Below, one piece after another: positions 1 through 15,612 of a DNA stretch of 24,000 nt. This stretch comes from Methanomicrobiales archaeon (GTDB taxonomy: Archaea; Halobacteriota; Methanomicrobia; Methanomicrobiales; JACTUA01): the NCBI GenBank assembly GCA_035506435.1, contig DATJPK010000026.1, positions 1 to 24,000 of the forward strand, written 5' to 3'. How positions within the stretch are numbered: the stretch's first letter is position 1; each line of letters begins with the position of its first letter. The position numbers and the translations under genes were made by a program. The notes beneath the pieces were generated by a model. That model was not told the DNA's origin. It searched no databases and was given only the letters and a program-made list of their open reading frames with translations.

Positions 1-521
1 AGGCCCCGTGCGCCGGTATCTGCACCCTTGCTGCTCCCCTGCACGACGGTCGATACGAGCTCGGGGCCGTACTGCCGGATCCGGTAGAGCTCCGCTTCGC
101 CCTCCTCGATCGCGAGGATGTGGACCGCTCCCGTCGAGGTGGCCTTCACCGCCCGGTCGATCCGGTCCAGGTCCACCTGGCGCCAGGTCCTGATCACCGA
201 GATCTCGTTCCCCGCGTCGAGGTTGATGGTGTGGTGCGATCCCTCGTCCACGCCGTGCTGGATGACCCCGCTGATCCGGAGCCGGTTCGAGTACTGGTGG
301 AAGGACACTCCCTCGACCCGGATCCCGAGCCGGACAGGCTTCTTCTCCGGCTTCTCGGGCCGGATCTTGTCGGTGACCGTCTCGACCGACCTGAAGGTCG
401 TGGCAAAGACGAGGTCCCCCGGCCGGATCAGGTGTGAGAGGTGCCAGAGGTCATCCACGCTCTCGGCAAAGAGCCGTATCTCGCCGTGGGATCCCTTCAT
501 CTCGAGGAACTCGGCCTTCAT
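1..521 (-). CDS. pelA: Pelota (archaeal Dom34 homologue), N-terminal ~173 codons; 3' end lies beyond the left window edge
   Basis: Absent from ORF track (no stop in window). Manual minus-strand translation from ATG at 521 gives MKAEFLEMKGSHGEIRLFAESVDDLWHLSHLIRPGDLVFATTFRSVETVTDKIRPEKPEKKPVRLGIRVEGVSFHQYSNRLRISGVIQHGVDEGSHHTINL..., open to position 3. GGAGG (532-536) lies 10 nt upstream. The DDLWHL..LI.PGD and RI.G motifs are typical of the Pelota N-domain. Confidence 0.9.
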   Translation of the reverse strand, partial: MKAEFLEMKGSHGEIRLFAESVDDLWHLSHLIRPGDLVFATTFRSVETVTDKIRPEKPEKKPVRLGIRVEGVSFHQYSNRLRISGVIQHGVDEGSHHTINLDAGNEISVIRTWRQVDLDRIDRAVKATSTGAVHILAIEEGEAELYRIRQYGPELVSTVVQGSSKGADTGARG

Positions 522-558
522 CGGGAACCCGCCTCCTTCCCTGCCCTGCCGCCACCGT

Positions 559-2448
559 TCATGACGCCACCATCTCCGACCCGCCGGGAGGTACGAACGC
601 GGCGACCGCCTCGGTCGAAAGAACCCTCCGCAGGCCCCCGCGTTCGCCCTCGGGGAGCATCTCCCTGAGGGCCCTCACGACCTTCTTTGCGATGTCGTTC
701 GGTTCATAGATGCCGGGCCTGATGGTGACCCGGCGGGATGTTTTCGGAGTGACCGCGGCCGGCGGCCCCCCGATGACCCTGGGGGTTTCCCCGTCCGCAA
801 GGCCGATCGAGATGGCGAGGGGCACGTCCCTGTACCAGGTCCGTTCGCCCCGCACGAGGAAGCCACCCGTCGAGAGATACTCGCCCGATGGTGGGGTCTT
901 CGAGACCTGGTCGGGGTGTGCCGCGTAGACATCGGCCGAGGCATGCCCGCTCTTCCAGGCCCCCGAGTACGAGGCGGCGAACTGCACCACCTCGTCCATT
1001 CGCTCCGTGGCCCCCTTGACGATCACCACCGCCGCGCCGTGGACGTCGGCGTGGACGAAGGTGTCGCCTCCCGCGAGGTATTTCCGGACGAGCTCCTCGT
1101 TCTGCCCGGCGTCCCTCCCGCCGACGACGAGAACCCCGTCCGAGGTCTCGAACCACCGGAACCGGTGGAACCACCGGCGTTTCGCCTCCGCGGGCTTTTC
1201 CGCCTTCTCCGGCGGCACGGGGAGCGGCCGGGCGAGGGCCGCCATCGCCCCGTCCCGCTTCCGCCGGTATTTCTTGATCTCCTCGTGGGTGCGGCCGATG
1301 TTCTCCCTGACCGATTCCCTGACGGAGATGGTCACCTGCTCCCCGTCGAGGTCGAGGGTGACCGAGGCCTTTTCGGGGTGAAACTGCACGACGGCCTTCG
1401 CCGCGGGGAGGTCGCTCTCCTTCAGGGTCTTCTCGATCTCGCTCCAGGGGTTCTTCTTCTCTGCCGACGAAAGGGCCCGGATGACCTCCTCCACGAGAGG
1501 ATAGTTCGCATAGACGGCCTCGACGGATTTCTCCAGCCGGCCGATCTCTCTCTCGAACTTTTTCAGGCTCTCCTCCTGCCGGGCCCGGATGGTCCCCCTC
1601 CGTTTTGCCGCGGCCTTTTTCTCCTTCGCCGGTGCCGGGGAAGGCCCGCCATAGTATGCCTCGAGCGCCTCGTGGTAACTCGCGAACCGGGCGCTGACCT
1701 TTTCACCTGCTCCGGGGAAGGGCCAGCAGCCCGAGGGGGTGATGACCGGCTCCCTCGCCGTCCTCACCCGTTCGAGGAGGCCGGCGATTGCCTGCCCGAC
1801 CTTCCCCGGGTCCGCCGATCCGGCGGGGGTATCCTTCGGTATTCCCGCAGAGGCGCAGGCCTCCTCCGCGTACCTCCCGCCCAGCATGCACCCGACGGCA
1901 AGGGCCTTCACGATCTCCTTTCCGGATGCGGCGAGGAGGGCCCCGAGGGCGGCAGGAGACATCTCTGAACAATCCGTTCCCGTAAAGAAGTAGGTCGCCC
2001 CCGGGACCACCTCCCGGTCCTTGAACCGGTGGTGCCACAGGGGCTTGATGATGGTCCCAGCCTCGTCGCAGAGCACGATGTTCCCCTCGTCGAAGAGCTC
2101 GGTGACGAGCCGGAGGCTCCCTGCCTTTTTACCGATGGTGATGGTGAAGATCCGCTGGAGGCCGTGCTGGTCAATCCCGAGCACCCGCCCACCCTCGAGA
2201 TGCTTCCTGAGGAGCATGGCAAAACCCCCGGGCTTCACCGGCGCTTCGGGGAGAGCCTTCACGAGGTGCGCCCTCTTCCCGGACTCGATAACGAGGGCGT
2301 GGCGGGCATGGTTCTCTCCCTGGAGCCGGATGGCGATGGTTTTCTGGTCGTACTGGTAGATCTTCCCGACCCAGAGGGGGAGGAGCGGGGCGAGCTCGGC
2401 GACCGCTGCTGTGAGGTCCACCCCGCTCATCCCCTGCGCCGTCGCCAT
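559..2448 (-). CDS. NFACT-family protein (Rqc2/RqcH/FbpA-like ribosome quality control factor, archaeal form)
   Basis: 629-aa ORF. NFACT-N-like N-terminus (LPLWVGKIYQYDQKTIAIRL...ESGKRAHL), central K/E-rich coiled coil, NFACT-R/DUF814 core (WFETSDGVLVVGGRDAGQNEELVRKYLAGGDTFVHADVHGAAVVIVKG). Ends 37 nt before the pelota start on the same strand. Confidence 0.9.
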   Translation of the reverse strand: MATAQGMSGVDLTAAVAELAPLLPLWVGKIYQYDQKTIAIRLQGENHARHALVIESGKRAHLVKALPEAPVKPGGFAMLLRKHLEGGRVLGIDQHGLQRIFTITIGKKAGSLRLVTELFDEGNIVLCDEAGTIIKPLWHHRFKDREVVPGATYFFTGTDCSEMSPAALGALLAASGKEIVKALAVGCMLGGRYAEEACASAGIPKDTPAGSADPGKVGQAIAGLLERVRTAREPVITPSGCWPFPGAGEKVSARFASYHEALEAYYGGPSPAPAKEKKAAAKRRGTIRARQEESLKKFEREIGRLEKSVEAVYANYPLVEEVIRALSSAEKKNPWSEIEKTLKESDLPAAKAVVQFHPEKASVTLDLDGEQVTISVRESVRENIGRTHEEIKKYRRKRDGAMAALARPLPVPPEKAEKPAEAKRRWFHRFRWFETSDGVLVVGGRDAGQNEELVRKYLAGGDTFVHADVHGAAVVIVKGATERMDEVVQFAASYSGAWKSGHASADVYAAHPDQVSKTPPSGEYLSTGGFLVRGERTWYRDVPLAISIGLADGETPRVIGGPPAAVTPKTSRRVTIRPGIYEPNDIAKKVVRALREMLPEGERGGLRRVLSTEAVAAFVPPGGSEMVAS

Positions 2449-2505
2449 GATAAACCCAAGCTACATATGGCTTCAGCGCTAAAAAAATAGACTACTGGTG
2501 GCGAT
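2449..2505. promoter_or_regulatory. 57-bp divergent promoter spacer (NFACT-pelota leftward, membrane protein-ABCE1 rightward)
   Basis: The only AT-rich stretch in the area. AAAAAAATAG (2481-2490) is ~25 nt upstream of ATG 2506. CCATATGTAG (minus strand, 2461-2470) is ~15-20 nt upstream of ATG 2448. No SD before either ATG, suggesting leaderless or very short leaders. Confidence 0.35.
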
Positions 2506-2928
2506 ATGGCAGGCGAGCCGAAGGCCGAAAGGGAGAAGGGGGCGAAACCTGAGGGGGAGAAGGCTCCGGAGAAGTCCCCGGAGAAGGCCACGAAGAGGAA
2601 GCTTTCCCGGGAGGAGAAGCAGGCCCAGCACATGGACCGGCTCAAGCGGACCTCGGTCGCCTGCGGGATGGGGATCATCGTCGGGGTGCTCTCCTTCTAC
2701 CTCGACCCCGCCCCGGCGGGAGCAGCGGTCGCGGGAACGGTATTCGGTATCCTCCTCCTCCTCGCCGGCATCGTGTTCCAGAAGTACGTCTTCCTCGCCC
2801 TCAGGATGGACTATCTCGGCATCACGACGAAGGACTGGTTTTACCAGGGGTTCATGACCTTCTCCCTCTGGTTCATCACCTGGACCATCCTCCTCTCCTC
2901 ACAGATACCCACCCTCACCACCCCGTGA
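2506..2928 (+). CDS. Small membrane protein, function unknown: ~45-aa Lys/Glu/Pro-rich N-terminal tail plus 3 predicted TM helices
   Basis: 140-aa ORF with GC3-biased codons. Hydrophobic segments are SVACGMGIIVGVLSFYL, AVAGTVFGILLLLAGIVF and FMTFSLWFITWTILLSS. Stop is 6 nt before the ABCE1 ATG. Confidence 0.75.
   Translation: MAGEPKAEREKGAKPEGEKAPEKSPEKATKRKLSREEKQAQHMDRLKRTSVACGMGIIVGVLSFYLDPAPAGAAVAGTVFGILLLLAGIVFQKYVFLALRMDYLGITTKDWFYQGFMTFSLWFITWTILLSSQIPTLTTP
2557..2592 (+). repeat. Three tandem 12-nt units (GAGAAGNNNNCG) encoding EKAP-EKSP-EKAT in the charged tail
   Basis: Read directly: gagaaggctccg / gagaagtccccg / gagaaggccacg. Confidence 0.8.
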
Positions 2929-2934
2929 CGGACC

Positions 2935-4707
2935 ATGAGGATCGCCGTAGTCCATAAAGACCGCTGCCACTCGAAGAAGTGCGGGAACGAGTGCATCATC
3001 TATTGCCCGCGCGTGAGGACCGGCGACGAGACGGTGGTCATCGGCGAGGAGGGCACCGCGGTTGTCTCCGAGGAGCTCTGCGTCGGCTGCGGGATCTGCA
3101 TCAAGAAGTGCCCCTTTTCCGCCATCGACATCGTGAGCCTCCCCGAGGAGCTCCCGTATCCCACCCACCGGTACGGGAAAAACGCCTTTGCCCTCTACGG
3201 CCTCCCGATCCCCGTCCCGGGGAAGGTGACCGGTCTCCTCGGCCCGAACGGGATCGGGAAGTCAACTTCCATCCAGATCCTCTCCGGGGGCCTGAAGCCG
3301 AACATGGGCGAGCTCGACCGCGACGTCCCCTGGAAGGAGATCCTCTCCCATTACACGGGCACCGAGCTCTTCGAGTACCTCCGCATGGTCTCAGGAGGCG
3401 GGGTGAAGACCGCGACGAAGCCGCAGTACATCGACTATATCCCGAAGATGTTCAAAGGGAGCGTCGGGGAGCTCCTGGAGACCACGGACGAGCGGGGGCA
3501 GCTCGCCCGGTACGTTGCGGCCTTCTCCCTCGGGCCCCTTATCGACCGGCCCATCGGGTCACTCTCGGGGGGCGAGCTCCAGCGGGTCGCCATCTGCGCC
3601 TGCCTCTCCCGGAAGGCCGATTTCTACTTCCTCGACGAGATCACCCCGTTCCTCGACATCTACCAGCGGATGGCCGCGGCCTCCCTCATCCGTGAGCTCG
3701 CGGCCGAGCGGCCCATCATGATCGTGGAGCATGACCTCGCCATCCTCGACCTTCTCGCCGATACCGTCCACATCGCCTTCGGGAAGCCCGCGGTCTTCGG
3801 GATCGTCACCCAGCCGAAGGGGGTCCGGGTGGGGATCAACCAGTACCTCGAGGGGTACCTCGCCGAGGAGAACATGCGGTTCCGGGAGTACCAGGTGGTC
3901 TTCGAGAGCAGGCAGCACGGGGAGCGGCAGGAACTCGAGGTGCTCACCGAGCTCCCCGCGATGGTGAAGAAGTACCCGGGCTTTACTCTCGAGGTGCAGG
4001 GCGGGGAGATCCACTGCGGCGAGGTGCTCGGCGTCGTCGGGCCGAACGGGATCGGGAAGACCACCTTCGCCCGGCTCCTCGCAAAGGAGGAGGAGCCTGA
4101 CCGGGGGAAAATGGTCCAGGCCCTCAGTATCTCGTACAAGCCCCAGTACCTCAAGGCCGAATCCGAGGAGACGGTCGAGTCGATCCTCAGGTCCGCGACG
4201 ACCCGGTTCGACAGCTCCTTCTTCCAGCACGAGGTCCTCGAACCCCTCGCCCTCACCCACCTCCTTGCCTCGCCGGCAAAGACCCTCTCGGGCGGGGAGC
4301 TCCAGCGGCTCGCCATCGCGACCTGCCTCTCGCGGGAGGCGGACCTCTATATCCTCGACGAGCCGAGCGCCCACCTCGACGTCGAGCAGCGGGTGAAGCT
4401 TCCAAGGGTCATCAGGAACCTCGCGCAGGAGCGGGAGGCGGGCATCCTCGTCATCGACCATGACATCTACCTGATCGACATCATCAGCGAGGGGCTCATG
4501 GTCTTCTCGGGCGAGCCGGGCAGGCAGGGTGTCGCCGAGGGGCCGTTTTCCATGCGGGAGGGGATGAACAGGTTCCTCCGGACCCTCGGGATCACCTTCC
4601 GGAGGGACAGGAGCGGTCGGCCCCGGATCAACAAGCCGGGCTCGTTCCTCGACCGGGAGCAGAGGGCGTCGGGTAACTATTATTACTCGGAGATTTCAAA
4701 GGGCTGA
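2935..4707 (+). CDS. abce1: ABCE1 / RNase L inhibitor-type ribosome recycling ATPase
   Basis: 590 aa. N-terminal double 4Fe-4S motifs (CHSKKCGNECIIYCP, CVGCGICIKKCP), two ABC cassettes with Walker A GPNGIGKST / GPNGIGKTT and two LSGGELQR signatures. Confidence 0.97.
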   Translation: MRIAVVHKDRCHSKKCGNECIIYCPRVRTGDETVVIGEEGTAVVSEELCVGCGICIKKCPFSAIDIVSLPEELPYPTHRYGKNAFALYGLPIPVPGKVTGLLGPNGIGKSTSIQILSGGLKPNMGELDRDVPWKEILSHYTGTELFEYLRMVSGGGVKTATKPQYIDYIPKMFKGSVGELLETTDERGQLARYVAAFSLGPLIDRPIGSLSGGELQRVAICACLSRKADFYFLDEITPFLDIYQRMAAASLIRELAAERPIMIVEHDLAILDLLADTVHIAFGKPAVFGIVTQPKGVRVGINQYLEGYLAEENMRFREYQVVFESRQHGERQELEVLTELPAMVKKYPGFTLEVQGGEIHCGEVLGVVGPNGIGKTTFARLLAKEEEPDRGKMVQALSISYKPQYLKAESEETVESILRSATTRFDSSFFQHEVLEPLALTHLLASPAKTLSGGELQRLAIATCLSREADLYILDEPSAHLDVEQRVKLPRVIRNLAQEREAGILVIDHDIYLIDIISEGLMVFSGEPGRQGVAEGPFSMREGMNRFLRTLGITFRRDRSGRPRINKPGSFLDREQRASGNYYYSEISKG

Positions 4708-4784: not shown

Positions 4785-6002
4785 ATGATGCAGGAGGAGA
4801 AGCTCCCCGGCCTCAGCCCCGACGACAGGCTGAAAAAGGTCAGGAAAGAGTTCCACGAATACATCGACAAGAACATCGCCGAGATCGTCCAGACCCTCCC
4901 CGTCTTTTTTGCCCACATCATCACGATGCTCAACGACTCCTTCCCCGGCATCAAGGACGAGGCCCACGACGAGTTCATCGACTCGGTCACGGAGCGGATC
5001 CTCTCCGACTCCCGGCAGGGGAACAACCTCGCGTTCGTCGAGAAGGTCTGCGCGAACGCCGTGCGGGCGAAGAAGGGCCAGCGGGCGAAGCAGGGCACCG
5101 ACATCATCGCCGGGATCGAGCTCCTGAAGAGCGAGCAGTTCGCCCCCGCCATCCGGCTCCTGAAGGAGTACACCCACCTGGACGCGACCATCGGCGCGGC
5201 GGTGGCATACTGCTATTACATGCTCTCGATGAAGGAGATCGCCTCGCTCAAGGAGAAGGCCATCAGGGTCGACGAGAAGGAGCAGCGGCCGAACCAGTAC
5301 GAGCTCATGGCGAGGGAGGAGATGCTCCGGCTCGCGAACTCGAGGCCGCCCATCAACGCCCTCAGGGAGCTCCGGATCCGGGAGGAGGAGGAACCGGTCC
5401 TCAGGAGGGCCTTCTGGCTCATGATCTCCTGCGCCCTCGAGTGGTTCCCGAACGAGAAGGGCTTCCTCTTCGTGGGGCTCGAGAAGGCAAAAAGGGACAA
5501 GAACCGGGACATGAAGAGCGAGCTCCTCAAGATCGCGACCGAGCGGTTCTTCGACGACATGTACTTCCTGAAGGAGATGTACCATTTCAAGCTCGAGACC
5601 GGGGACGGTGACGGCGCGACGGTGGTCGTCCGGCAGATGATCCAGCAGTTCCCCGACGGGCTGGAACCCCTGTACTTCGGGCTCATGATCTCCCTCCTCT
5701 CGATGAAGAAGACCACGTACGACGGGTTCCGGAAGCTGCTCCTCATGAAGGGGATCCCCGAGCACATACCCGGGACGATGGACATCGCCTACCATGTCAT
5801 GAACAACGACCACCGGCAGGCGCTCGCCACCCTTCGTGAGCTCAAGGGGAAGTTCCCGAGGTTCGATTTTTACTACGTCTCCCTCGAGTACCTCCTCGCC
5901 GATACCTCCGCCGAGGACCAGAAGCGGAACAAGCGGGCGAGGAAGATGCTCCTCGACTCCATCGACCGGTTCTGCTTAAACGAGCTCGGGATAGAAAGGT
6001 AA
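4785..6002 (+). CDS. Hypothetical protein, predicted all-helical (TPR-like?), cytoplasmic
   Basis: 405-aa ORF with balanced K/E/L/F/Y composition and strong GC3 bias. The antisense ORF 4782-5813 is R/G/P/H/D-rich shadow. No motif I recognise. Confidence 0.8.
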   Translation: MMQEEKLPGLSPDDRLKKVRKEFHEYIDKNIAEIVQTLPVFFAHIITMLNDSFPGIKDEAHDEFIDSVTERILSDSRQGNNLAFVEKVCANAVRAKKGQRAKQGTDIIAGIELLKSEQFAPAIRLLKEYTHLDATIGAAVAYCYYMLSMKEIASLKEKAIRVDEKEQRPNQYELMAREEMLRLANSRPPINALRELRIREEEEPVLRRAFWLMISCALEWFPNEKGFLFVGLEKAKRDKNRDMKSELLKIATERFFDDMYFLKEMYHFKLETGDGDGATVVVRQMIQQFPDGLEPLYFGLMISLLSMKKTTYDGFRKLLLMKGIPEHIPGTMDIAYHVMNNDHRQALATLRELKGKFPRFDFYYVSLEYLLADTSAEDQKRNKRARKMLLDSIDRFCLNELGIER

Positions 6003-6028
6003 TAAAACCGGGCAGGATTCCCGTGGTT
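6003..6028. terminator. Possible bidirectional hairpin between convergent genes
   Basis: AACCGGG (6006-6012) pairs with CCC-gt-GGTT (6020-6028), 7 bp with a 2-nt bulge. The minus strand gives GGTTTTAT after the propeller gene stop. Confidence 0.25.
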
Positions 6029-7239
6029 CACCGGCCGAGGAGCCGGCCGAAAAACCCTGATATCGCTTTTAAGAAAGCCTCGAGGGGGCCCGGGGGTGCC
6101 GCGGGGGCCTCCTGGACCTCCGTGTAGGAAACGGCGGGGGTCAGGGAGTGCGCCGGGGGAGCCGGAGGGGCAGGATAGGTCGTCACGACGGGGAAGGTAT
6201 CGACGGGTATGGTCGGGTTCCCCGCCCCGCTCTCCGGGGGAAGCTGGTAGTACCCGACGTTCTCGGGGGTGACGAACCAGAGCCGGTCCTGGGAGTCGAG
6301 GTAGAGCCTCTTCACCGCGTTGTTCCTGATCCCCCTCGGGGCATCAAGGTGGTCCTTCACGCCGTAATCCCACTTGTAGAGGCCGTAGTTCGTCGCGATC
6401 CAGAGGGCCCCGGAGGGGTCGACCTGGACGTCCGCGATGTCGATCCCCATCATCAGGTCGTCGGGGGTAGCGATCAGCCGGAGCCGGTCCTGCGGGTTGT
6501 AGTGGAGGATTGCTGACGAGTTGAAGATGTAAATTCCCCCGAAGGGGTCCTCCTTGAGCCGGTAGGCCGATCCCGCGGCGAGCTGGGGATCGGTGAAGAG
6601 GGTGAAGGATACAGGGGAATCGGAGTTCTCCGTCGACCAGATACCGGTGTTGCAGGACGCGTACAGGGTCTTTCCCCCGTTATCGGCGGTCATCGAGTCC
6701 ACGTAGTTGCACCCGAGCCCCTCGCGGCCGCCGGGCTGGAACCATTCCCAGGTCCCGTCGCGGTACCGGTGAAGCCCCGCCGTCCCCGCAGCGACCCACA
6801 TCCTCCCGTTCGCGAGGAGGAGCCCGTGGATGTCCAGGCTTTTTAAGAGCTGCTGGTCACGGTTCGTCTCGTACAGGCCGTCCTCGATGACCTGGATGCC
6901 GTCGGGGTAGCCCAGCCAGAGGTGGCCCGCGGGGTCGAACTCGGCGGCGAGGATATGGTCCGAAAGGAGCCCGTAGCTCACGTTACCGTAGGTCATGTGG
7001 CGGATCTGCCACGAACCGTCGTAGATGGAGAGGCCGTTGTCGGTCCCGAAGTAGAGGGTCCCGTGAGGGTCCTCGGCGATGTCGAGGACCCCGAGGGAGG
7101 AGATCTGGTTCGACGAGGCAATGAAAAGGACGGTGCCTGCGAGGGCTGGCCCGGAGACTGCAAAGACGAGGGCGAGGAGGATGACCGGGACCAGCCCGGG
7201 GCTCCGGGACCCCGTGCGGACTCCTGCGCCACCCGCCAT
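6028..7239 (-). CDS. Secreted/membrane-anchored 7-bladed beta-propeller protein (two-component-regulator-propeller, Reg_prop-like repeats), Pro-rich stalk and C-terminal amphipathic helix
   Basis: 403 aa. N-terminal signal/anchor (LVPVILLALVFAVSGPALAG). Seven repeats of the form D-x-x-G-x-[LI]-[WY]-h-[GA]-T-x-x-G-[LI]-x-x-[YW], e.g. EDPHGTLYFGTDNGLSIYD, DPAGHLWLGYPDGIQVIE, NGRMWVAAGTAGLHRYRD, DPSGALWIATNYGLYKWD, SQDRLWFVTPENVGYYQ. Tail is PAPPAPP...GPLEAFLKAISGFFGRLLGR. ATG is 6 nt after the stop of the preceding gene, with GAGGGAGA upstream. Confidence 0.85.
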   Translation of the reverse strand: MAGGAGVRTGSRSPGLVPVILLALVFAVSGPALAGTVLFIASSNQISSLGVLDIAEDPHGTLYFGTDNGLSIYDGSWQIRHMTYGNVSYGLLSDHILAAEFDPAGHLWLGYPDGIQVIEDGLYETNRDQQLLKSLDIHGLLLANGRMWVAAGTAGLHRYRDGTWEWFQPGGREGLGCNYVDSMTADNGGKTLYASCNTGIWSTENSDSPVSFTLFTDPQLAAGSAYRLKEDPFGGIYIFNSSAILHYNPQDRLRLIATPDDLMMGIDIADVQVDPSGALWIATNYGLYKWDYGVKDHLDAPRGIRNNAVKRLYLDSQDRLWFVTPENVGYYQLPPESGAGNPTIPVDTFPVVTTYPAPPAPPAHSLTPAVSYTEVQEAPAAPPGPLEAFLKAISGFFGRLLGR

Positions 7240-7245: not shown

Positions 7246-8112
7246 CTATCTCCCTCTCATTTCGTGCAGGACGTCTCCCAGTTCGTCGAGGAGCTGCTTC
7301 CCGCTCACCCTGACGCCCTTCAGGTCCCGCAGGAGGCTCGTGTCGTCCCGCCTCTTTTCCCTCATCGCCTCTGCCCGGAGGGCCGAGAGGAGGTCGTCGG
7401 CACCCAGCCCGCCGTCGGCGAGGGTGAGGACGTTCACCGGGGGTTCCACCACCGGCTCCGGCTCCTCCCCGGGCTGGGGGAAGGCGGCCGCCTGGAGATC
7501 ACCCGGCCCGGGGGTACCGGCGACGGGGGCGAGGGCGCCCGCAGCCCCGGCTGTCTCCTCGCCGCTGACCTCTTCGAGGAGCTGGGCCGGGATGTCCACC
7601 CCGGTGAGATCGTCGAAGGGGTTATCCTGCCCCTCTCCCTGCACCGCCCCGGGCGCCGGCTTCGCCCCGGCAGGAGAGGCCTTCGCGGCCGGCTGGACCG
7701 GCGTGACGGCCTTCGGCCGGCCCTCGGCGAGGGATATGATCTTTCTTGACTGGCCGACGAGCGCCGAGTCGAGCATCAGGTCGATCTTCTCCTTCTCGGC
7801 CTCAGCGACCGCCTCAGCGGGCTCGCCGGCCGCGCCCCGGGACGGCCTGAGGCTCCTCATCCTCCCGAGTGAAGCCCGGAGCCCTCCGGGCGCTTCGGGC
7901 ACGGTGCCGGCCTGCACGACCTCTCTCGCAGAGGCTGCCGACCGGATCCGGAGGTCTTCCATCTTCAGGGAGCCCGCGGCAAAGAGCATCCCGATCCCCA
8001 CCACCGTGTCCGTGAGGACGAGGAGGACGGGGTTCATCCCGGTGTACAGCAGCGCCGTACCCGTTCCGAAGGTTCCGAGGCCAAGGATCATCTGGCGTAT
8101 TCTCTCGTTCAT
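7246..8112 (-). CDS. Hypothetical membrane protein coupled to arlJ: N-terminal TM hairpin, long Ala/Pro/Glu-rich disordered region, helical C-terminus
   Basis: 288 aa. The ATG overlaps the arlJ stop (ATGA at 8109-8112), with GGAGG (8119-8123) 6 nt upstream. TM segments are MILGLGTFGTGTALLYTGM and PVLLVLTDTVVGIGMLFAAGSL. C-terminus is DDLLSALRAEAMREKRRDDTSLLRDLKGVRVSGKQLLDELGDVLHEM. Confidence 0.8.
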   Translation of the reverse strand: MNERIRQMILGLGTFGTGTALLYTGMNPVLLVLTDTVVGIGMLFAAGSLKMEDLRIRSAASAREVVQAGTVPEAPGGLRASLGRMRSLRPSRGAAGEPAEAVAEAEKEKIDLMLDSALVGQSRKIISLAEGRPKAVTPVQPAAKASPAGAKPAPGAVQGEGQDNPFDDLTGVDIPAQLLEEVSGEETAGAAGALAPVAGTPGPGDLQAAAFPQPGEEPEPVVEPPVNVLTLADGGLGADDLLSALRAEAMREKRRDDTSLLRDLKGVRVSGKQLLDELGDVLHEMRGR

Positions 8113-9719
8113 GTGATTCCTCCCGTGGGGAAGGTTGGAATGGTGAAGAAGATGTTCACGATGATAGGCGCGAGGATGACGAGCGCCCCGCTGATGGTAA
8201 AGAGGATCGTCGAGAACAGGTAGAAGATGTACCGGTCGCCCCCGTACACGATTTTCCCCGCGATGATGTTCGAGACGGTGATGAGGAGGATGATGATCAT
8301 GACGTAGGTGGTCATCTTGTCGACGGGGAAGTGCATGAGGAAGGTGACGTCGAGGCCCGACGGCATCGACGAGGTGCTCCCCGAGATGGCCGCCTGGGAC
8401 TCCCCCAGGTTCGACATCACGTTCTCGATGGAGTTCGAGATGTTGCTCATGATGAAGAACAGGAAGAGGAGAATACCCACCATGGCGGCGTGCATGGGCA
8501 CGAGGAGGGTGACGAAGCCCATCGAGACCTGGTGGCGCTTGTCCCGGAGGAGCACCTGGTCCAGGCTCGAGGTGCCGACGATCAGGCCGACCTTGTCCGG
8601 CGAGCCGCCGAGGGTGACCGAGTCCCGGAAGATGTTCGTGTACTTGTAGATGTTATTGCTCCCCGACTCGCCGATGAACCGGCTCCAGCTCTGGGTCTCG
8701 TCGAGGCCGAGGTTCAGCTTCGAGTAGATGGAGTCCACGAGGTCACGGATCTTGGGGAGCGAGGCCCGGTCCACCTCGGTGAAACCCTGCACCATCGGGA
8801 CCCCCTTCCCCCCCATCACCGAGCCGAGGGTCCGGATGAAGGTGGGGAAGTCGTTGTCCCGGCCGACAATCTTGCTGTCGTCGATGAAGCCGAGGATCGC
8901 GAGGGGCGCGAGGAGGATCCCGATGAGGAGGTAGATGAACCCGGCGCTCTGGCCCGTGACCCAGAGGATGATGCAGCCGGCCGCCGTGACGAGGACGAGG
9001 GGCCGCTCGAGCTTCCTGATGAGGCCCTGCTCCCGGGAACACCGGTCGGCGAGACCGTGGGTCCGGCGGTCCTCGGGTACAGAGCGGTACATCGTGACGA
9101 GGCCGAAGATGGAGATCATGATGACGATGAGGTACGAGAGGTTCAGGGTCTGGTCGATTCCGCCGGCAGAGAAAATGGCGATGGAGAGCATGATGATGAG
9201 GGAAACGAGCACGCCCGAGAAGAGCATCGCGATGTACGCGTCGCCCCACTTCTTGAGCATCTCGAGGCCCTGCTCCACGGTGTTCCGGTACACGCTCCTG
9301 ATGGTGTCGAGCTCCCGGTCCAGGAAGTCCTCGTCGGGCACGCCGCTCTCCATCGCGTTTGCGTACCGGTTGAAGACCGACTGGAGCACCTCGTTTTTGA
9401 TCTTCTTTGCGACGATCTTCAGGGCCTCGGCATAGCTGTAGTTCCAGCGCTTGACAAAGTAGTCAACCTTTGCCACGTACTTGGTGGGGACGTACTCGTA
9501 CCGCCTGCCGGTGTAGGAGAAGATGTCCGGCCGGGAGACCCCCGCGGTCGTGATGGAGGCCATGTAGGTCGCCATGAAGAGGAGGTCGGCGGGGGTCCGC
9601 TTCTCCTCGTCGACGCTCTGGACGAAGCCGCTGACCCGCTTCACCTGGTCCGCGAAGGGAAGCTTCCCATCTCCCCTTGCCCGCAGGGCGTCTGCAAACC
9701 CGCCGAAGAGTCCCGCCAT
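8109..9719 (-). CDS. arlJ: Archaellum polytopic membrane platform protein ArlJ (FlaJ)
   Basis: 536 aa. Two T2SS-F-like cytoplasmic domains separated by TM bundles. Position is directly after arlI (2-nt spacer). Confidence 0.95.
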   Translation of the reverse strand: MAGLFGGFADALRARGDGKLPFADQVKRVSGFVQSVDEEKRTPADLLFMATYMASITTAGVSRPDIFSYTGRRYEYVPTKYVAKVDYFVKRWNYSYAEALKIVAKKIKNEVLQSVFNRYANAMESGVPDEDFLDRELDTIRSVYRNTVEQGLEMLKKWGDAYIAMLFSGVLVSLIIMLSIAIFSAGGIDQTLNLSYLIVIMISIFGLVTMYRSVPEDRRTHGLADRCSREQGLIRKLERPLVLVTAAGCIILWVTGQSAGFIYLLIGILLAPLAILGFIDDSKIVGRDNDFPTFIRTLGSVMGGKGVPMVQGFTEVDRASLPKIRDLVDSIYSKLNLGLDETQSWSRFIGESGSNNIYKYTNIFRDSVTLGGSPDKVGLIVGTSSLDQVLLRDKRHQVSMGFVTLLVPMHAAMVGILLFLFFIMSNISNSIENVMSNLGESQAAISGSTSSMPSGLDVTFLMHFPVDKMTTYVMIIILLITVSNIIAGKIVYGGDRYIFYLFSTILFTISGALVILAPIIVNIFFTIPTFPTGGIT

Positions 9720-9721
9720 CC

Positions 9722-11587
9722 CTAGCTCCCGATCTTGAGCAGGCCTTCCTTCTTCACCTTCGTGATCATCTGGAAGAGGTCCTTGAAGTCAACGTAGCCC
9801 GCCTTGTGCAGCCGCTCGAGGATCCGTGCCCGCTTGTCCACTTCGTCGTAGATCTCGGCCTTCTTGTGGTCGGGGAAGCCGAGGAGGGTCGCGATCTTGT
9901 TCTCGAGGATATAGCTCGCCCCTTTTCCCGAGAAGTCGAAGGTGTCGTTCACGGGGTTCCACTTGAAGATCTCGACGAAGGAGATACCGCCGGTATCGGC
10001 GTTGTACCCGACGAGCTCGTTTACCGAGAGCATGCGCCTGACGGTCTCACCGGAGGGGCGCTTGACCGCGCTCTGGATGACGACGAGGTTCAAGTTATCG
10101 AGGTAGGTCTTCGGGATGTTGATCGGGTCACCGCAGAGACGCTGGATGAGCTTCTCGACCGAGGCCGCATGGAAGGTGGAGAGCACCGGGTGACCGGTCT
10201 GCATCGCACCGAAGGCGACCGACCCCTCGACACCACGGATTTCCCCGACCACGATCATGTTCGGCCGCTGACGGAGGGCCGACTTCAGGAGGTCGAACAT
10301 GGTGACATCGGCCCCCTCGCCCTCCCCCTTGCCCTTTGCCTTCGAGACCTCCCGGGTCCAGTTCTTGTGGGGCACCTGGAGCTCGGGGGTATCCTCGATG
10401 GAGACGATCTTGTGCTCGGGCGGGATGAAGGCCGTCACGGCGTTCAGGGAGGTGGTCTTCCCCGAGGCCGTCTCCCCGCTCATGAAGAGGGACATCCCGT
10501 GCTCGATGCAGATCCAGAAGTACCCCGCCATCAGGTAGTTGCAGGTCCCGAACTCCACGAGCTTGAGGATGCTGATGACGTCGTCGGCCATGGCCTTCCG
10601 TATCGTGAAGTTGGAGCCGCGCTTCGAGATCTCGGTCCCGTACACGATGTTGATACGGGACCCGTCGGGCAGCGTCGAGTCCACGATGGGCGTGCGGTAG
10701 GTGAGGGGCTTCTTCAGCCTCTCGCCGAGCTTCACCACGAACTGGTCGAGCTCGTCGGACTTGTGGAACTCGATGATGGACTTCAGGCCCTTGAAGATCT
10801 TGTGCTCGATGAAGATCGGGCCGAGGCCGTCGCAGGTGACATCCTCGATATACCGGTCGTTGATGTACGGCTTCAGCACCCCGAGGTCGATCTTGTCCCG
10901 GATCATGAGGTACTCCACCGCCTGGTACTCCTGCGGGGTAAGCACGATCCGGCCGTCGGGGAGTTTCGGGACCTTCGCGAGCGCCGCGTCGGCCTCGTTG
11001 TCGGTCGCAGCAGTCAGGTCCTTGTTCAGGAACCCCATGATCTTTTCCTTCATGCCCTGCTTCGCCGCGATCTGGGCCATGAGCCCCTCCACCGTCTCGC
11101 CCTGCTTCGTGACGTAGACAACCCGGGAGACGAGTTCCTTTAATACCGAGGCCCGCTCGGCATCGTTGATGGGGTCCCGGTCGAGGGCGTCGAGCAGGTT
11201 CACGAGCTTGACCTCCACCGCGGGGATGAGGTCGTTCACCGAGTGGAGGAAGGAGGGCTCGATGGGGATGTAGTAGTTCCGGGCATCGACGGGGTCGGGG
11301 AAGATGTGGATGTAGGTGTTTTCGCCCGCGGGATAGATCAGGTTCGGGTCCTTCATCGACTTGAGGTCCCGCTTCAGCTCCGAGAAGAACAGGGGGACCC
11401 CGTAGGTGTTCACCGGGTAGGTATGGAGGTACTCGAGGAGGTGCGGGCTCCTCTGCGCGTACTCCTTTGCATGCGCCGGGAGCATCCGGTAGATCGAGCA
11501 GCCTTCGATGTTGTTTGCGCAGTCGTTCCCCTCGTCGGCCTTTGCCGGGTTGAAGGGGAGTGTCAGGGAGACGGTGAGGGTGCCCAT
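9722..11587 (-). CDS. arlI: Archaellum motor/assembly ATPase ArlI (FlaI), secretion-ATPase superfamily
   Basis: 621 aa. Walker A GETASGKTT, Walker B NMIVVGEIRG, SIEDTPEL and HPVLSTFHA motifs. ATG is 3 nt after the arlH stop. An internal Met at residue 35 is an alternative start. Confidence 0.97.
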   Translation of the reverse strand: MGTLTVSLTLPFNPAKADEGNDCANNIEGCSIYRMLPAHAKEYAQRSPHLLEYLHTYPVNTYGVPLFFSELKRDLKSMKDPNLIYPAGENTYIHIFPDPVDARNYYIPIEPSFLHSVNDLIPAVEVKLVNLLDALDRDPINDAERASVLKELVSRVVYVTKQGETVEGLMAQIAAKQGMKEKIMGFLNKDLTAATDNEADAALAKVPKLPDGRIVLTPQEYQAVEYLMIRDKIDLGVLKPYINDRYIEDVTCDGLGPIFIEHKIFKGLKSIIEFHKSDELDQFVVKLGERLKKPLTYRTPIVDSTLPDGSRINIVYGTEISKRGSNFTIRKAMADDVISILKLVEFGTCNYLMAGYFWICIEHGMSLFMSGETASGKTTSLNAVTAFIPPEHKIVSIEDTPELQVPHKNWTREVSKAKGKGEGEGADVTMFDLLKSALRQRPNMIVVGEIRGVEGSVAFGAMQTGHPVLSTFHAASVEKLIQRLCGDPINIPKTYLDNLNLVVIQSAVKRPSGETVRRMLSVNELVGYNADTGGISFVEIFKWNPVNDTFDFSGKGASYILENKIATLLGFPDHKKAEIYDEVDKRARILERLHKAGYVDFKDLFQMITKVKKEGLLKIGS

Positions 11588-11590
11588 GGA

Positions 11591-12337
11591 TCAGACCTTC
11601 GCAACCGATATCGGGATGATCTTGATGCCGTACCCGGGGACGACCTCGAAGGAGACCAGGTTCTCCCGGGTCTTGTGGGCGCCCCGGATCTTCACGACCT
11701 CGAGGACCATCAGGTACTTGTCGCCCATGAGGGCCCGCTTCAGGGTGAGGAGGGCGTCGCAGACCTGCCGGAGCCGGACGAGCGTGTCCTCCTCGAAGGC
11801 ATAGGAGTGCAGGGTGACGAAGATGGTCTTTCCCTTGTCGCAGAGGTTCTTGCAGCCCGTGAAGAAGTCGATGATGACCTCGCTCGAGGTGTTCTCGGTG
11901 AAGAGGGTGATGGAGTCGATGATGACGATCTCCGCCTGGCTCTCCCTGATGTGGGCGAGGAGGCGCTGGAGGATCTCCTCCATGTTCTCCTTCTCGGGGT
12001 CAAAGCCGGGCACGAGGACAGGGAAGAGCCTGAGGTAGCCCCAGGCATAGTAGTCAGAGATGTCGAGGCTCATCGTCTCCATCTGTGAGAGGAAGTCCTG
12101 GGGGTTCGTCTCGCTCGAGTAAATGTCGATGCACAGGCCCTGCTTCATCCCGCCCCATATGATCTGCTGGGTGAAGACCGACTTCCCGCTGTCATGTTCC
12201 CCCTCGATGAGGGTGAGGGACTTCAGGGGCACCCCGTCGTCGAATTTCTTGTCGATCTCGGACTTCCCCGTCACGAGGACGGCCTTCTTCTTTTCGGCCG
12301 CCTGGTCCAGGGATCCTGGCTTGTCTTCCAATGGCAT
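11591..12337 (-). CDS. arlH: ArlH (FlaH), KaiC/RecA-like ATP-binding archaellum protein
   Basis: 248 aa. Walker A-like GEHDSGKS, IVIIDSIT Walker B-like strand. GGAGTG SD overlaps the arlG stop. Confidence 0.95.
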   Translation of the reverse strand: MPLEDKPGSLDQAAEKKKAVLVTGKSEIDKKFDDGVPLKSLTLIEGEHDSGKSVFTQQIIWGGMKQGLCIDIYSSETNPQDFLSQMETMSLDISDYYAWGYLRLFPVLVPGFDPEKENMEEILQRLLAHIRESQAEIVIIDSITLFTENTSSEVIIDFFTGCKNLCDKGKTIFVTLHSYAFEEDTLVRLRQVCDALLTLKRALMGDKYLMVLEVVKIRGAHKTRENLVSFEVVPGYGIKIIPISVAKV

Positions 12338-12346
12338 AGAGCACTC

Positions 12347-12847
12347 CTACACGATGTACGCGGAGTCGTAGACCCCGTTCGCAGTCGACACCTTCACCCA
12401 CACCGGGTCGCCCTTCAGGGGGTCCGGGTCGTAGGCCACCGAGATGTTCACAACCTCGTCGGGATCGAGGAGCCCCGGGTGGACGATCTCGCCGTGGACG
12501 AGATCGGGGCTCATGATCCGGTAGACCCAGTCGTACGGGGCCGAGAGGTTGGTGTACGTGTACGGGACCCCGCCCTGCATCAGGTACACCTCGGTGTGGT
12601 TGAAGTCCCCGAGGATCTCGCTCCCCGTGTTCTTCACCTCGAGGTACGTCAGCCGGGCCCCGAGGTCGTTCGATACGTTCATGATCTCGACGTTCGTATG
12701 GATCCGCTCGTTTTCCTTCTCCGAGATGGCACGCTGGGCAAGGACGGCGGTCTTTGCCGTGGCAAGGGTCCCCCCGATCAGGACGTAGGCCGTTATGATG
12801 AGGAGGATGATCGCGACCGCGGACGCGATGATGGTGCCGGCACCCAT
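12347..12847 (-). CDS. arlG: ArlG (FlaG)
   Basis: 166 aa. Single N-terminal hydrophobic helix (IIASAVAIILLIITAYVLIGG) followed by a beta-rich domain. F versus G is assigned by the canonical order arlF-arlG-arlH. Confidence 0.8.
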   Translation of the reverse strand: MGAGTIIASAVAIILLIITAYVLIGGTLATAKTAVLAQRAISEKENERIHTNVEIMNVSNDLGARLTYLEVKNTGSEILGDFNHTEVYLMQGGVPYTYTNLSAPYDWVYRIMSPDLVHGEIVHPGLLDPDEVVNISVAYDPDPLKGDPVWVKVSTANGVYDSAYIV

Positions 12848-12850
12848 ATC

Positions 12851-13354
12851 CTAGCTCACCGTAAACTGCTCCGAGCGCTTCGTCCCGTCGAAGAGGACCA
12901 TCTGGAAGTACACGACGTCCCCCCTCGAAGTCGGGAGATGGTCGCTCTTCATCATGAGATGGAGGGTCTCGCCCTCGTCCCAGTAGGCGTTCGAGTTATC
13001 CAGGATATCGTAGCTCCACTTGCCGGCGGCCGGCGGGGCGCCCACGAGATCATCCTGGGAGAGGGCCTCGAAGTCGCCCGGGGCACCGATAAAGAGGGTG
13101 GACATGTTCAGGTCCTTCAGGTAGATCCGACTCGTACCCGTGTCCTTCAGCCAGACCTGGGCGTTCCCTGCCGAATCCGCGAAGCTGTTCACGATGACCA
13201 TGTCGGTCCGCATCTGCTGGTCTGCCTTCGAAGAGGAGGAGGAGAAGGTGGAGGACATGGTATAGATGGCCGGGAAAATCTGGGAGGTGAGGATGCCTGC
13301 CGCTACGATGGCGGTGATGAGGAAGATGGCCGTAACGATTGTCTCACTCGACAT
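12851..13354 (-). CDS. arlF: ArlF (FlaF)
   Basis: 167 aa. N-terminal helix TIVTAIFLITAIVAAGILTSQIF plus a beta-rich domain. 3-nt spacers on both sides. Confidence 0.8.
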   Translation of the reverse strand: MSSETIVTAIFLITAIVAAGILTSQIFPAIYTMSSTFSSSSSKADQQMRTDMVIVNSFADSAGNAQVWLKDTGTSRIYLKDLNMSTLFIGAPGDFEALSQDDLVGAPPAAGKWSYDILDNSNAYWDEGETLHLMMKSDHLPTSRGDVVYFQMVLFDGTKRSEQFTVS

Positions 13355-13357
13355 CCA

Positions 13358-14161
13358 TCAGGTCCTGTCCATGCTGTCGATCCACTCGAAGACCTGATCG
13401 CTCTCGGGTTTCCCGGCCTTTCTCGGGACCGCGGCCACCGGGCCCGGGATCCGGTGGGTCATGAGGACCTCGATCATGTCCTCGTCCAGGGTGTTGTCCT
13501 TGGGGTCGAGGATCCGGTTGAGGATATAGAGCTCGGAGACGAACTCGTCGGGTCCGATGACATGGAGTTCCCCGAGCGAGGCGGGGAGGAGCCGGCCGAT
13601 CTCCCGGATCTGGCCTTCCATCTCCTCGGTAAGGTATCCCATGCTCGTATAGGCCTGGAGGAGGATCTCGAGCCGGTCATGGCCGTACCGGTTGATGATC
13701 TTCGACGTCCATCCAAAGAGCCGGTGTACCTTCCGGAGCCGGAGCTTCTCCCCGAGCTTCCCGGATCCGAAGGGCATGGCCGGCGGCATCTTTCCCTTTC
13801 CCCGCAGCATGTTTGCAAGCTCCTCCTGGACGCTCTTCTCGGCGCCCGGGAAGGACTCCTCCTGCTCCTCCGCCTTCTCTTCACCGGCGGGGACCTCCTC
13901 CTCTTCCTTCTCCTCCTCGGCCGGGGCCTCTTCAGCCTCGGGGAGCTTTCCCGGGAGCGGCCCATGGGTGAGGAAGGGGTTATCCTTCTCGTTCAGCCGG
14001 TCCCGGATATCGATCAGGAGCTTCTTGATGGAGGTCTTCATGAGGTCCATCTCGTCCTGCAGCTTGAGGAGCTTCACGTCCGCGTCCCCGGCAGGTGAGG
14101 CGGCAGCGGCGGGTGCCTCATCCTGCGGTGACGGCGGCATATTCAGATTGAGCCTGGCCAT
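13358..14161 (-). CDS. arlCDE: Fused ArlC/ArlD-E type archaellum protein (FlaC coiled coil + acidic linker + FlaD/E domain)
   Basis: 267 aa. N-terminal coiled coil VKLLKLQDEMDLMKTSIKKLLIDIRDRLNE, poly-acidic linker EEAPAEEEKEEEEVPAGEEKAEEQEE, C-terminal FlaD/E-like RLFGWTSKIINRYGHDRLEILLQAYTSMGYLTEEMEGQIREIGRLL. An alternative start is Met8 (14140). Confidence 0.85.
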   Translation of the reverse strand: MARLNLNMPPSPQDEAPAAAASPAGDADVKLLKLQDEMDLMKTSIKKLLIDIRDRLNEKDNPFLTHGPLPGKLPEAEEAPAEEEKEEEEVPAGEEKAEEQEESFPGAEKSVQEELANMLRGKGKMPPAMPFGSGKLGEKLRLRKVHRLFGWTSKIINRYGHDRLEILLQAYTSMGYLTEEMEGQIREIGRLLPASLGELHVIGPDEFVSELYILNRILDPKDNTLDEDMIEVLMTHRIPGPVAAVPRKAGKPESDQVFEWIDSMDRT

Positions 14162-14169
14162 AGCACACT

Positions 14170-14215
14170 CACGTAAAAAAAATTAATCACTCATACTAAA
14201 TATACCTTGTGTTTT
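14170..14215 (-). promoter_or_regulatory. Candidate promoter of the arlCDE-J (and downstream) operon
   Basis: Minus-strand AGGTATATTTAG (14196-14207, ~41 nt upstream of ATG 14161) and GATTAATTTTTTTT (14174-14188), inside a ~140-bp very AT-rich island. Confidence 0.35.
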
Positions 14216-14302
14216 GCTATTTTTCATAAAAGACATAGTGTTTACAAAATAACCTGAAAATCTTCATTAAAACGGGAAATAAATCGGGTTTGCGCCTCGT
14301 TC

Positions 14303-14380
14303 ATCCGGGGGTGGTCCCCCCGGATACATCACCTGCTATCCCCGGCATGCACCGGGCGCGGCGCATGCACTGTAAAAAAA
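14303..14380 (-). terminator. Archaellin transcript terminator: T7 run followed by GC-rich hairpins
   Basis: On the minus strand a TTTTTTT run (14374-14380) starts 10 nt after the arlB stop. Next comes GCATGC...GCATGC (14345-14350 / 14363-14368). Then a 9-bp perfect stem ATCCGGGGG / CCCCCGGAT (14303-14311 / 14317-14325) with a 5-nt loop. Confidence 0.55.
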
Positions 14381-14389
14381 GGTGAGGGA

Positions 14390-14998: not shown

Positions 14999-15009
14999 CT
15001 CTTCTCACC

Positions 15010-15612
15010 TCACCGCAGGGCGTTCACCGGGTCGATGCCACCGGGGCCTTCCCTCTTGATGGAGAGGGCCGGGCCGACGACGGGCTTGACCTCGAGGGTG
15101 AACGTGTCCCGGGAGACGATGGCGCTCGTTGACGAGGTAAGGTGAACGGAGATGTCCATCTGCTCGCCGGTCTCCAGGTAATAGTTCGTGTTCCCGTTCG
15201 TGATCCTGATGATGGACCACTGGCCTGCAGCCGGGCCGCTGTTGAAGAGCGGGCTCGCCTGGGAGAGCTCTACCCGGGTACTCTGGTTCGAATACACCAT
15301 CGCGATCTTCGTCATGTCAATGGGTTCGCCGCCAGGGGCGAGGCCCATCGTGAAGTTCACGAAGTTGATCTCCGGACACGGGCATGCACCCGCCGTGACC
15401 CGGCCGAGGCCGATGACGTCCCCCAGTACCTCGAAACTCGAGGAGGCCTGCTGGACGCCCGTGATCACGGTCTGCTGGCTCTTCTGGGTGGTGAAGAACC
15501 CTGCCCCGAGGACCACGTAGGAGAAGACAGCGGCCACGACCACGAAGGCGATGAGAACAATCGCCGCCTCGAGGCCCGTGAACGCATCTTCACGACTCAG
15601 TAGACGTTTCAT
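15010..15612 (-). CDS. arlB: Archaellin ArlB (FlaB), promoter-proximal copy
   Basis: 200 aa. MKRLLSREDA/FTGLEAAIVLIAFVVVAAVFSYVVLGAGFFTTQKSQ. Sequons NFT, NQS. AGGTG SD (15619-15623) 6 nt upstream of the ATG. Confidence 0.95.
   Translation of the reverse strand: MKRLLSREDAFTGLEAAIVLIAFVVVAAVFSYVVLGAGFFTTQKSQQTVITGVQQASSSFEVLGDVIGLGRVTAGACPCPEINFVNFTMGLAPGGEPIDMTKIAMVYSNQSTRVELSQASPLFNSGPAAGQWSIIRITNGNTNYYLETGEQMDISVHLTSSTSAIVSRDTFTLEVKPVVGPALSIKREGPGGIDPVNALR
15442..15589 (-). repeat. Conserved 5' segment shared by the two archaellin genes (copy 1)
   Basis: See 14831-14978. Confidence 0.8.

Follow-up and report, generated by a model that had tools for sequence, protein, structure and literature searches.

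Stalled ribosomes with an empty A site are recognised by Pelota together with aEF1-alpha and are split by ABCE1, and the resulting large subunit with its peptidyl-tRNA is bound by NFACT proteins. To our knowledge, archaeal ribosome-associated quality control, or RQC, is essentially uncharacterised, as regards both the fate of NFACT substrates and the partners of NFACT. The same three protein families that make up Pelota (Dom34)-ABCE1 (Rli1) splitting and NEMF/Rqc2 RQC are encoded next to each other at one end of a 24,000 nt stretch (the window) of an uncultured Methanomicrobiales archaeon (contig DATJPK010000026.1, positions 1 to 24,000, about 65% GC), along with a small membrane protein of the EMC6 family. 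The present analysis concerns this four-gene cluster: NFACT, pelota, the EMC6-like gene and ABCE1.

Compared with eukaryotic RQC, the window genes are clustered in two operon-like units and there is no Ltn1, Rqc1, Vms1 or ubiquitin system present; in the window NFACT, QR stands in place of the DR tRNA-recognition motif of bacterial and eukaryotic homologues. The neighbourhood described by Burroughs and Aravind in 2014 (PMC4075521) was likewise conserved, archaeal and centred on NFACT, and was used for functional inference. The partners reported there are a Mut7-C RNase and AMMECR1, with no Pelota, ABCE1 or small membrane protein in the main text, and neither Mut7-C nor AMMECR1 lies directly beside NFACT in the gene-called loci that we examined. 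The membrane protein belongs to the family treated by Lewis and Hegde in 2021 (PMC8675477), with three predicted helices and the conserved C-terminal W..W motif; the Methanomicrobiales version differs in adding an N-terminal tail of 20–45 aa rich in Lys and Glu. In that study the archaeal EMC6 gene lies away from the SecY/YidC/ribosomal cluster, and no linkage to NFACT or ABCE1 is reported, nor is a Dom34 neighbourhood with NFACT reported in a paper on release-factor evolution (PMC6514570). Conceptually closest is the rescue and RQC associated with the eukaryotic endoplasmic reticulum (ER), where the same rescue factors work on ribosomes stalled at a membrane insertion machine: Dom34-dependent release unblocks Sec61 clogged by nonstop membrane proteins (PMC4969602), and NEMF acts on translocon-bound 60S subunits (PMC12047416). 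Whereas ER-RQC involves Sec61, UFMylation and Ltn1, the sole membrane component here is an accessory subunit of the Oxa1 superfamily and the link is purely genomic. Outside subscription-only sources, our literature searches found neither NFACT-pelota nor EMC6-ABCE1 described as an operon, and no account of EMC6 being linked to NFACT. The four protein families are known, while their conserved cluster, and especially the link to a membrane protein, appears to be new.

The four-gene cluster and its proteins

The features of the cluster are as follows (window coordinates, strand, description and basis):

1–521, minus strand: pelota (aPelota/Dom34 homologue), 5' part of 173 codons, cut by the window edge; eRF1_1 and TIGR00111 matches
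522–558, minus strand: NFACT-pelota gap of 37 nt, in which a Shine-Dalgarno-like GGAGG stands about 8 nt ahead of the pelota ATG; read from the sequence
559–2448, minus strand: NFACT (archaeal Rqc2/RqcH homologue, aRqcH), 629 aa; Pfam, NCBIfam and structure alignment
2449–2505, no strand: divergent spacer of 57 bp; alignment with the spacers of relatives, putative promoter roles
2506–2928, plus strand: EMC6-like small membrane protein, 140 aa; Pfam EMC6_arch
2935–4707, plus strand: ABCE1/RLI twin-ATPase, 590 aa, 6 nt 3' of the EMC6-like gene; NCBIfam RLI and Pfam
4785–6002, plus strand: orf405, 77 nt past ABCE1 and possibly a third member of the EMC6-ABCE1 unit; position, no family match

When the open reading frames (ORFs) and the sequence were re-read, the coordinates, strands, 37-nt gap and 57-bp spacer of a preliminary description of this DNA proved exact. 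A scan for sigma-70 promoters and terminators gave no site in 522–558, its model being bacterial and not applicable to archaea.

The window NFACT matches Pfam NFACT_N (8.8e-44, residues 9–406) and NFACT-R_1 (9.3e-30, residues 430–534), scores 626 bits end to end against NCBIfam RqcH_arch (cut-off 400), and aligns to the PDB chains of human NEMF, Rqc2 and Bacillus subtilis RqcH. It combines NFACT-N, an HhH/middle region, a coiled coil and NFACT-R/DUF814 in one protein, the combination that defines the family. Its best match (98% identical) is on an ENA metagenome contig, and the named relatives are Methanomicrobiales metagenome-assembled genomes (MAGs), Methanoculleus and Methanofollis. The DR motif (D97/R98 in B. 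subtilis) is not present as such: the residues aligned to the DR of NEMF are Q98-R99 (codon 98 is at 2155–2157), the Arg of the motif being retained and the Asp replaced. This Asp is needed for tRNA-Ala selection and tailing by B. subtilis RqcH (PMC8373112). At the same position, Methanomicrobiales relatives have Q (59) or E (23), and other archaea have D (203) or E (45). Our literature searches found no data on large-subunit binding or C-terminal tailing for any archaeal NFACT homologue.

Of Pelota only the N-terminal 173 aa are present, matching Pfam eRF1_1 (7.7e-29) and TIGR00111 pelota (1.1e-37); the TIGR00111 score is under the cut-off solely because the protein is truncated at the window edge. 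Full-length orthologues at related loci are 341–352 aa long, with the domains Pelota_N, eRF1_2 and eRF1_3. ABCE1 scores 876 bits against the NCBIfam RLI equivalog (cut-off 469) and has the Pfam domains Fer4_RLI, Fer4 and two ABC_tran. The family's arrangement of two N-terminal [4Fe-4S] clusters followed by twin ABC domains is complete, with all eight FeS cysteines (11/16/20/24 and 49/52/55/59); the Walker A motif GPNGIGK and the signature LSGGELQR are each present twice. The 405-aa product of orf405 gave no Pfam or NCBIfam match, and its AlphaFold single-sequence model is all-helical but poor (predicted local distance difference test, pLDDT, 50).

The 140-aa membrane protein matches Pfam EMC6_arch (PF19094) at 7.2e-26 and 90.9 bits (cut-off 26.7). 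A 45-aa Lys/Glu-rich N-terminal tail (2506–2640 region) is followed by three predicted helices. In length (about 90–140 aa), number of membrane helices and profile match the protein fits the EMC6 family. An AlphaFold single-sequence model also has three helices, at low confidence (pLDDT 64), and a Foldseek comparison of this model with the PDB, as well as a profile search of the PDB, returned only noise. The predicted EMC6/YidC pair is comparable with the eukaryotic pairs EMC3-EMC6, GET1-GET2 and TMCO1-C20orf24. Archaeal EMC6 (that of Methanocaldococcus jannaschii) is predicted with high confidence to form a heterodimer with the YidC/Oxa1-type insertase (Lewis and Hegde 2021, PMC8675477). There is no YidC gene in the window, and no YidC/DUF106 gene in any gene-called locus examined.

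Conservation of the cluster and its spacer

Genome contigs were scanned with NFACT as anchor, and the best 80 of 419 matches, all from species-level Methanomicrobiales genomes, were analysed; their NFACT proteins are 52–82% identical to that of the window. Pelota is directly 3' of NFACT in 79/79 loci with continuing sequence, and in 72 of these 79 the two genes share 4 or 11 nt where one stops and the other starts. The gap between the EMC6-like gene and ABCE1 has a median of 6 nt, and this pair adjoins NFACT-pelota in all 69 loci in which both could be located. An orf405 orthologue follows ABCE1 in about 25 of the 69. The divergent layout of the window is found in 49 loci (median spacer 58 bp). 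In the other 20, from Methanoculleus and relatives, EMC6-ABCE1 lies downstream of pelota on the same strand, making all four genes co-directional, and this tandem layout can probably be derived from the divergent one by a single inversion. The preliminary description had portrayed two divergent units under what looked like one bidirectional control region. The first part applies to the window and the 49 loci but not to the 20 tandem ones, and the second is not the conserved feature, since Methanoculleus keeps the cluster with all genes co-directional.

As a control for synteny, the genes of one reference locus were sought anywhere in each of 29 loci with full flanks of ±10 kb. The four cluster genes occur together in 29/29, whereas the gene or genes immediately past pelota are found in 2/29 and more distant genes in 1–4/29. 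The exceptions are on the ABCE1 side, namely a beta-propeller protein (20/29, in varying positions and orientations) and orf405 (10/29). Given this contrast with the scrambled flanks, the block is an island of conserved gene order with sharp edges and not a by-product of slow rearrangement. It extends across the order and into one Methanosarcinales genome, and the preliminary description's proviso, that linkage confined to a few close relatives would speak for chance juxtaposition, does not apply.

The 57-bp spacer is AT-rich in a 65% GC genome, with an A/T run at 2479–2490. It holds a conserved box, CCAAGCTACATATGG, at 2456–2470 (CCATATGTAGCTTGG on the NFACT strand), and a Shine-Dalgarno-like GGTGG at 2497–2501, before the EMC6 ATG. 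Twelve aligned spacers (50–63 bp) from different families share 14 invariant columns, CACCAGTAGTC-TATTTTTTTAG-N8-CCATATGTAnnTTGG, and the spacer stays conserved between families that share only about 52% protein identity. Over 4.4 Mb of retrieved sequence, CCATA..TA..TT has 53 occurrences; of these, 33 are 17–26 nt upstream of an NFACT ATG, a strong preference for one position. In Methanoculleus, the EMC6-like gene is no longer upstream of NFACT, yet TTCTTTAG-N8-CCGAATGTA is kept before NFACT, and ACTGGTG (with a Shine-Dalgarno-like GGTG) precedes the EMC6-like gene. Most likely, the A/T run and the CCATATGTA box form a compact promoter region for both directions. The T-run, whose centre is about 37 nt upstream of the NFACT ATG, may be the TATA element of that gene, implying a leader of about 10 nt. 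The CCATATGTA box may cover either the start site of NFACT or the site of a regulator, and EMC6 may be translated from a short leader carrying GGTGG. The gene overlaps, together with the nucleotide-level conservation of the spacer, speak for a pair of operons that share a compact control region. A possible shared regulatory motif, 'ATGTA', upstream of both Methanoculleus units was dropped as carrying too little information.

In the Methanoculleus-type loci (L010–L047 in our numbering), pelota and the EMC6-like gene are separated by 90–890 bp (e.g. L015, 12950–13562), and in L031 by 2.7 kb with an inserted gene. No convincing ORF was found in these gaps, and no tRNA in the 600-bp gap in which one was sought. 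They have a conserved GC-rich leader ending ACTGGTGTCACG-ATG, with TATA-like boxes about 110 nt upstream.

The sample outside Methanomicrobiales comprised 13 gene-called contexts (two of them anchored on ABCE1) and 80 diverse metagenome contigs. The contigs were retrieved with a profile from a 21-sequence NFACT alignment sharing W[FY]E[KR][FY]RWF, a motif that excludes Methanomicrobiales. The result is uneven, being heavily Bathyarchaeia-like and without Sulfolobales, Nitrososphaeria, Thermoplasmata, Methanococcales or Archaeoglobi, and the taxon labels of metagenome contigs are tentative, as they are those of the nearest named NFACT, often only 36–60% identical. Methanosarcinales CP061209 has all four genes in the layout of the window, around a 59-bp spacer. 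Elsewhere, parts of the cluster are seen. Methanocella, Methanocellaceae MAGs and Methanohalobium have NFACT-pelota alone, the two genes overlapping or being 22–24 nt apart; pelota lies 1–2 kb downstream of NFACT, with other genes between, in two of four haloarchaeal contigs, the Hydrothermarchaeota-like L094 and the related L117; Methanoperedens has EMC6-like followed by ABCE1 alone; and one Halobacteriota MAG lineage has NFACT divergent from EMC6-ABCE1 without pelota, NFACT there being followed by L7Ae-S28e-NDK. Neither pelota nor ABCE1 is within reach of NFACT in Thermococcales (8 loci), Bathyarchaeia-like (about 50) or Asgard-like (7) sequences, nor are they near NFACT in the Methanobacteriales loci. 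From this mosaic, the complete cluster is a feature of Methanomicrobiales and some Methanosarcinales and not of Archaea in general: of the linkage whose breadth the preliminary description had proposed to check, the pairs recur in several lineages and the full cluster is not pan-archaeal.

Several of these loci have other genes near NFACT. In L094 and L117, the stretch from NFACT to pelota includes, on the opposite strand, a gene for an ERCC4-nuclease and SAP-domain protein (12059–13225, minus strand, and 8321–9442, minus strand, respectively), and at one Bathyarchaeia locus it is aRF1, not pelota, that lies 3 kb from NFACT. In Pyrococcus abyssi (L083), NFACT comes after GatD-GatE and shares 4 nt with a gene for an uncharacterised protein of 148 aa (9947–10393, plus strand), which suggests that Thermococcales have a different, lineage-specific NFACT partner.

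The remaining window genes (an archaellum operon, aIF5A and metabolic genes) are unrelated to the rescue cluster. The beta-propeller protein (6028–7239, minus strand) has Reg_prop repeats and is secreted or membrane-anchored. The archaellum operon (8109–15612, minus strand) specifies ArlJ-like (T2SSF), ArlI (T2SSE ATPase) and ArlH (KaiC-like) proteins, two flagellin-fold accessory proteins, an unassigned 267-aa protein and two archaellins. At higher coordinates are genes for a HEAT/PBS-lyase repeat protein (15714–16772, minus strand) and aIF5A (17674–18051, minus strand); the latter factor also relieves stalled ribosomes, and its gene is 13 kb from the cluster and not conserved with it.

Pairing of the EMC6-like gene with NFACT

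In many lineages without ABCE1 and pelota at the locus, an EMC6-like gene is found on the opposite strand directly upstream of NFACT. Counts cover the 74 loci outside Methanomicrobiales that have 400 bp or more of sequence upstream of NFACT, and were made with a family hidden Markov model (HMM) built on the membrane core only, as a whole-ORF version drifted to 241 matches by way of the low-complexity KE-rich tail. The E-values of family members against this HMM are circular, because the same sequences built the model; their positions are not. In 41/74 loci an EMC6-like gene on the opposite strand is no more than 400 bp from NFACT, and in a further 10 it is 0.4–2 kb upstream on that strand. None was found upstream of NFACT in 19/74, including all eight Thermococcales, two haloarchaeal contigs, Methanocella and Methanohalobium. 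When NFACT proteins were clustered at 55% identity, 21 of 27 assessable clusters had the adjacent pair; with clustering at 45%, 8 of 11 had it.

Pfam and profile-profile comparison also support the homology of these small proteins. Pfam EMC6_arch is passed by proteins of Methanothermobacter-like contigs (58–66 bits), L094 (41 bits), L117 (32 bits) and the Halobacteriota MAG lineage (82–92 bits), and the upstream ORF of Asgard-like contigs passes the eukaryote-type EMC6 model PF07019 (27.5 and 23.5 bits). The Bathyarchaeia-like upstream ORF codes for 86–108 aa with three hydrophobic helices and a C-terminal KxxTTGIGIYFxSWxVFWxLLYT. Two members gave sub-threshold Pfam scores (22 and 19 bits), while in profile-profile comparison (hhalign) the ORF matched the euryarchaeal EMC6 family with 87% probability (E 4e-6) and the Asgard-like family with 98% (E 2e-14). 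That these small ORFs are spurious, one of them having gone uncalled by a public gene caller, was considered and rejected on account of their protein-level conservation across divergent contigs and the EMC6 profile matches. One EMC6-like gene, 21 bp upstream of NFACT and beside an L11-L1-L10-L12 operon, was independently called and Pfam-labelled by a public pipeline. In L170, a 170-aa protein (3700–4251, minus strand), about 1.8 kb upstream of NFACT, was labelled as PKD-domain by the public pipeline and is also a strong match to the EMC6-like HMM; it may be a fusion or an annotation overlap.

The Lys/Glu-rich N-terminal tail (20–45 aa) is seen in the EMC6-like proteins of lineages in which ABCE1 is the next gene (the window, L082, L111, L160, L171 and L172). 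The Methanobacteriales, Hydrothermarchaeota-like and Bathyarchaeia-like proteins without an ABCE1 neighbour have no such tail.

The divergent EMC6-like and NFACT genes are likely the old unit; in Halobacteriota-type lineages, ABCE1 would have been added after EMC6 and pelota after NFACT. Anything else encoded in the two units had been put forward earlier as a candidate by association. The identity of the EMC6 protein was missed at that stage, and this membrane protein turns out to be the most widely conserved neighbour of NFACT. It is the most informative guilt-by-association candidate, with orf405 second.

Interpretation of the cluster

We interpret the cluster as a selectively maintained block of translation-surveillance genes, consisting of two short back-to-back operons, and give this a probability of roughly 65%. 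One unit would be NFACT (aRqcH) followed by pelota, translationally coupled in most relatives, and the other the EMC6-like gene followed by ABCE1, with orf405 added in some lineages. In the proposed scheme, Pelota, with aEF1-alpha encoded elsewhere, would enter a stalled ribosome at its empty A site, ABCE1 would split the ribosome, and NFACT would then take the 50S-peptidyl-tRNA product; two adjacent and probably co-regulated units would balance the supply of the splitting and post-splitting steps. As an accessory subunit of an insertase is encoded in the cluster, stalled membrane-bound ribosomes may be an important substrate. Rescue and RQC would in that case be tied to ribosomes engaged in co-translational membrane insertion, with stalled ribosomes or 50S subunits cleared from the insertase. 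Gene arrangement suggests co-transcription and shared regulation, and that EMC6 may be coupled, physically or functionally, with NFACT or ABCE1. To speak of a complete rescue/RQC pathway, as the preliminary description did, is an overreach, since genes for aEF1-alpha, a peptidyl-tRNA hydrolase and a degradation factor are all missing here.

A number of points weigh against this interpretation. Canonical tailing by the window NFACT is not assured, because QR replaces DR. The pathway does not need clustering, as the unclustered Thermococcales, Bathyarchaeia-like, Asgard-like and Methanobacteriales loci demonstrate. A single inversion keeps genes adjacent by default, and the adjacency in Methanoculleus alone is therefore no evidence of selection. 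The operons and the bidirectional promoter are deduced from overlaps, 6-nt gaps, Shine-Dalgarno-like motifs and spacer boxes. The EMC6-like protein is a predicted partner of an archaeal YidC/Oxa1-type insertase, and the role of EMC6 in archaea is itself only predicted (PMC8675477). Finally, in other lineages NFACT or the EMC6-like gene abuts translation operons, specifically NusG-L11-L1-L10-L12 (L169, 2715–5657), L7Ae-S28e-NDK (L172, 3924–5209) and L44e-S27e-eIF2alpha-Nop10 (L084, 4407–5936), which fits a looser translation neighbourhood too.

A more specific, and tentative, proposal is that the EMC6-like subunit is a functional and possibly physical partner of NFACT (and of ABCE1 in the Halobacteriota-type arrangement), coupling splitting and RQC to ribosomes stalled at YidC/Oxa1. 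The divergent pair, spread from Methanomicrobia to Bathyarchaeia-like and Asgard-like sequences, could then mark an ancient membrane RQC that predates eukaryotic ER-RQC. We regard this as possible, though well short of probable.

The most durable of the competing explanations is that housekeeping genes for translation simply aggregate and share strong promoters, without any pathway logic, the EMC6-like gene being a passenger. The ribosomal protein and eIF2-alpha operons just listed are what it would predict, as is the aIF5A gene in the window. It accounts poorly for the partners that recur, which are specifically rescue factors and in several independent pairwise combinations, for the sharp synteny boundaries of the four-gene block, and for the survival of the EMC6-NFACT pair over phylum-level distances at which nearly all gene order outside operons is lost. 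We consider it unlikely on balance. Less likely still is that the small membrane protein serves NFACT outside YidC/EMC-type insertion, as an anchor or receptor for NFACT or the 50S subunit or as a regulator, with the links to ABCE1 and Pelota secondary. Such a role would suit the breadth of the EMC6-NFACT linkage, which ABCE1 and Pelota join only in Halobacteriota-type lineages, the lack of YidC/DUF106 genes in the gene-called loci, and the charged N-terminal tail where ABCE1 is next. Set against these are the homology of the family to eukaryotic EMC6 (Pfam) and the high-confidence predicted heterodimer with archaeal YidC (PMC8675477), and there is no direct evidence of any NFACT contact. Phylogenetic inertia or chance, by which a single accidental arrangement in the Methanomicrobiales ancestor has not yet been broken, could draw on the partly conserved ABCE1-side neighbours and on the one inversion that yields the Methanoculleus layout, but is largely refuted and very improbable given flanks retained in 1–4/29 against 29/29 for the block, the gene overlaps and conserved non-coding spacer that indicate functional coupling, and the same pairs in Methanosarcinales, Methanocellales, Methanobacteriales, Hydrothermarchaeota-like, Bathyarchaeia-like and Asgard-like sequences.

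A bacterial RQC study expects that an undiscovered cofactor of NFACT exists in archaea and eukaryotes (PMC8373112). For archaeal RQC, the selectively maintained block favoured here provides a concrete shortlist of candidates, the EMC6-like protein and orf405, and a defined control region of 57 bp. If the EMC6-like/NFACT pairing is functional, it would bear on how stalled ribosomes are cleared from insertases without Ltn1 or UFMylation, and on the origin of eukaryotic ER-RQC and EMC-associated quality control.

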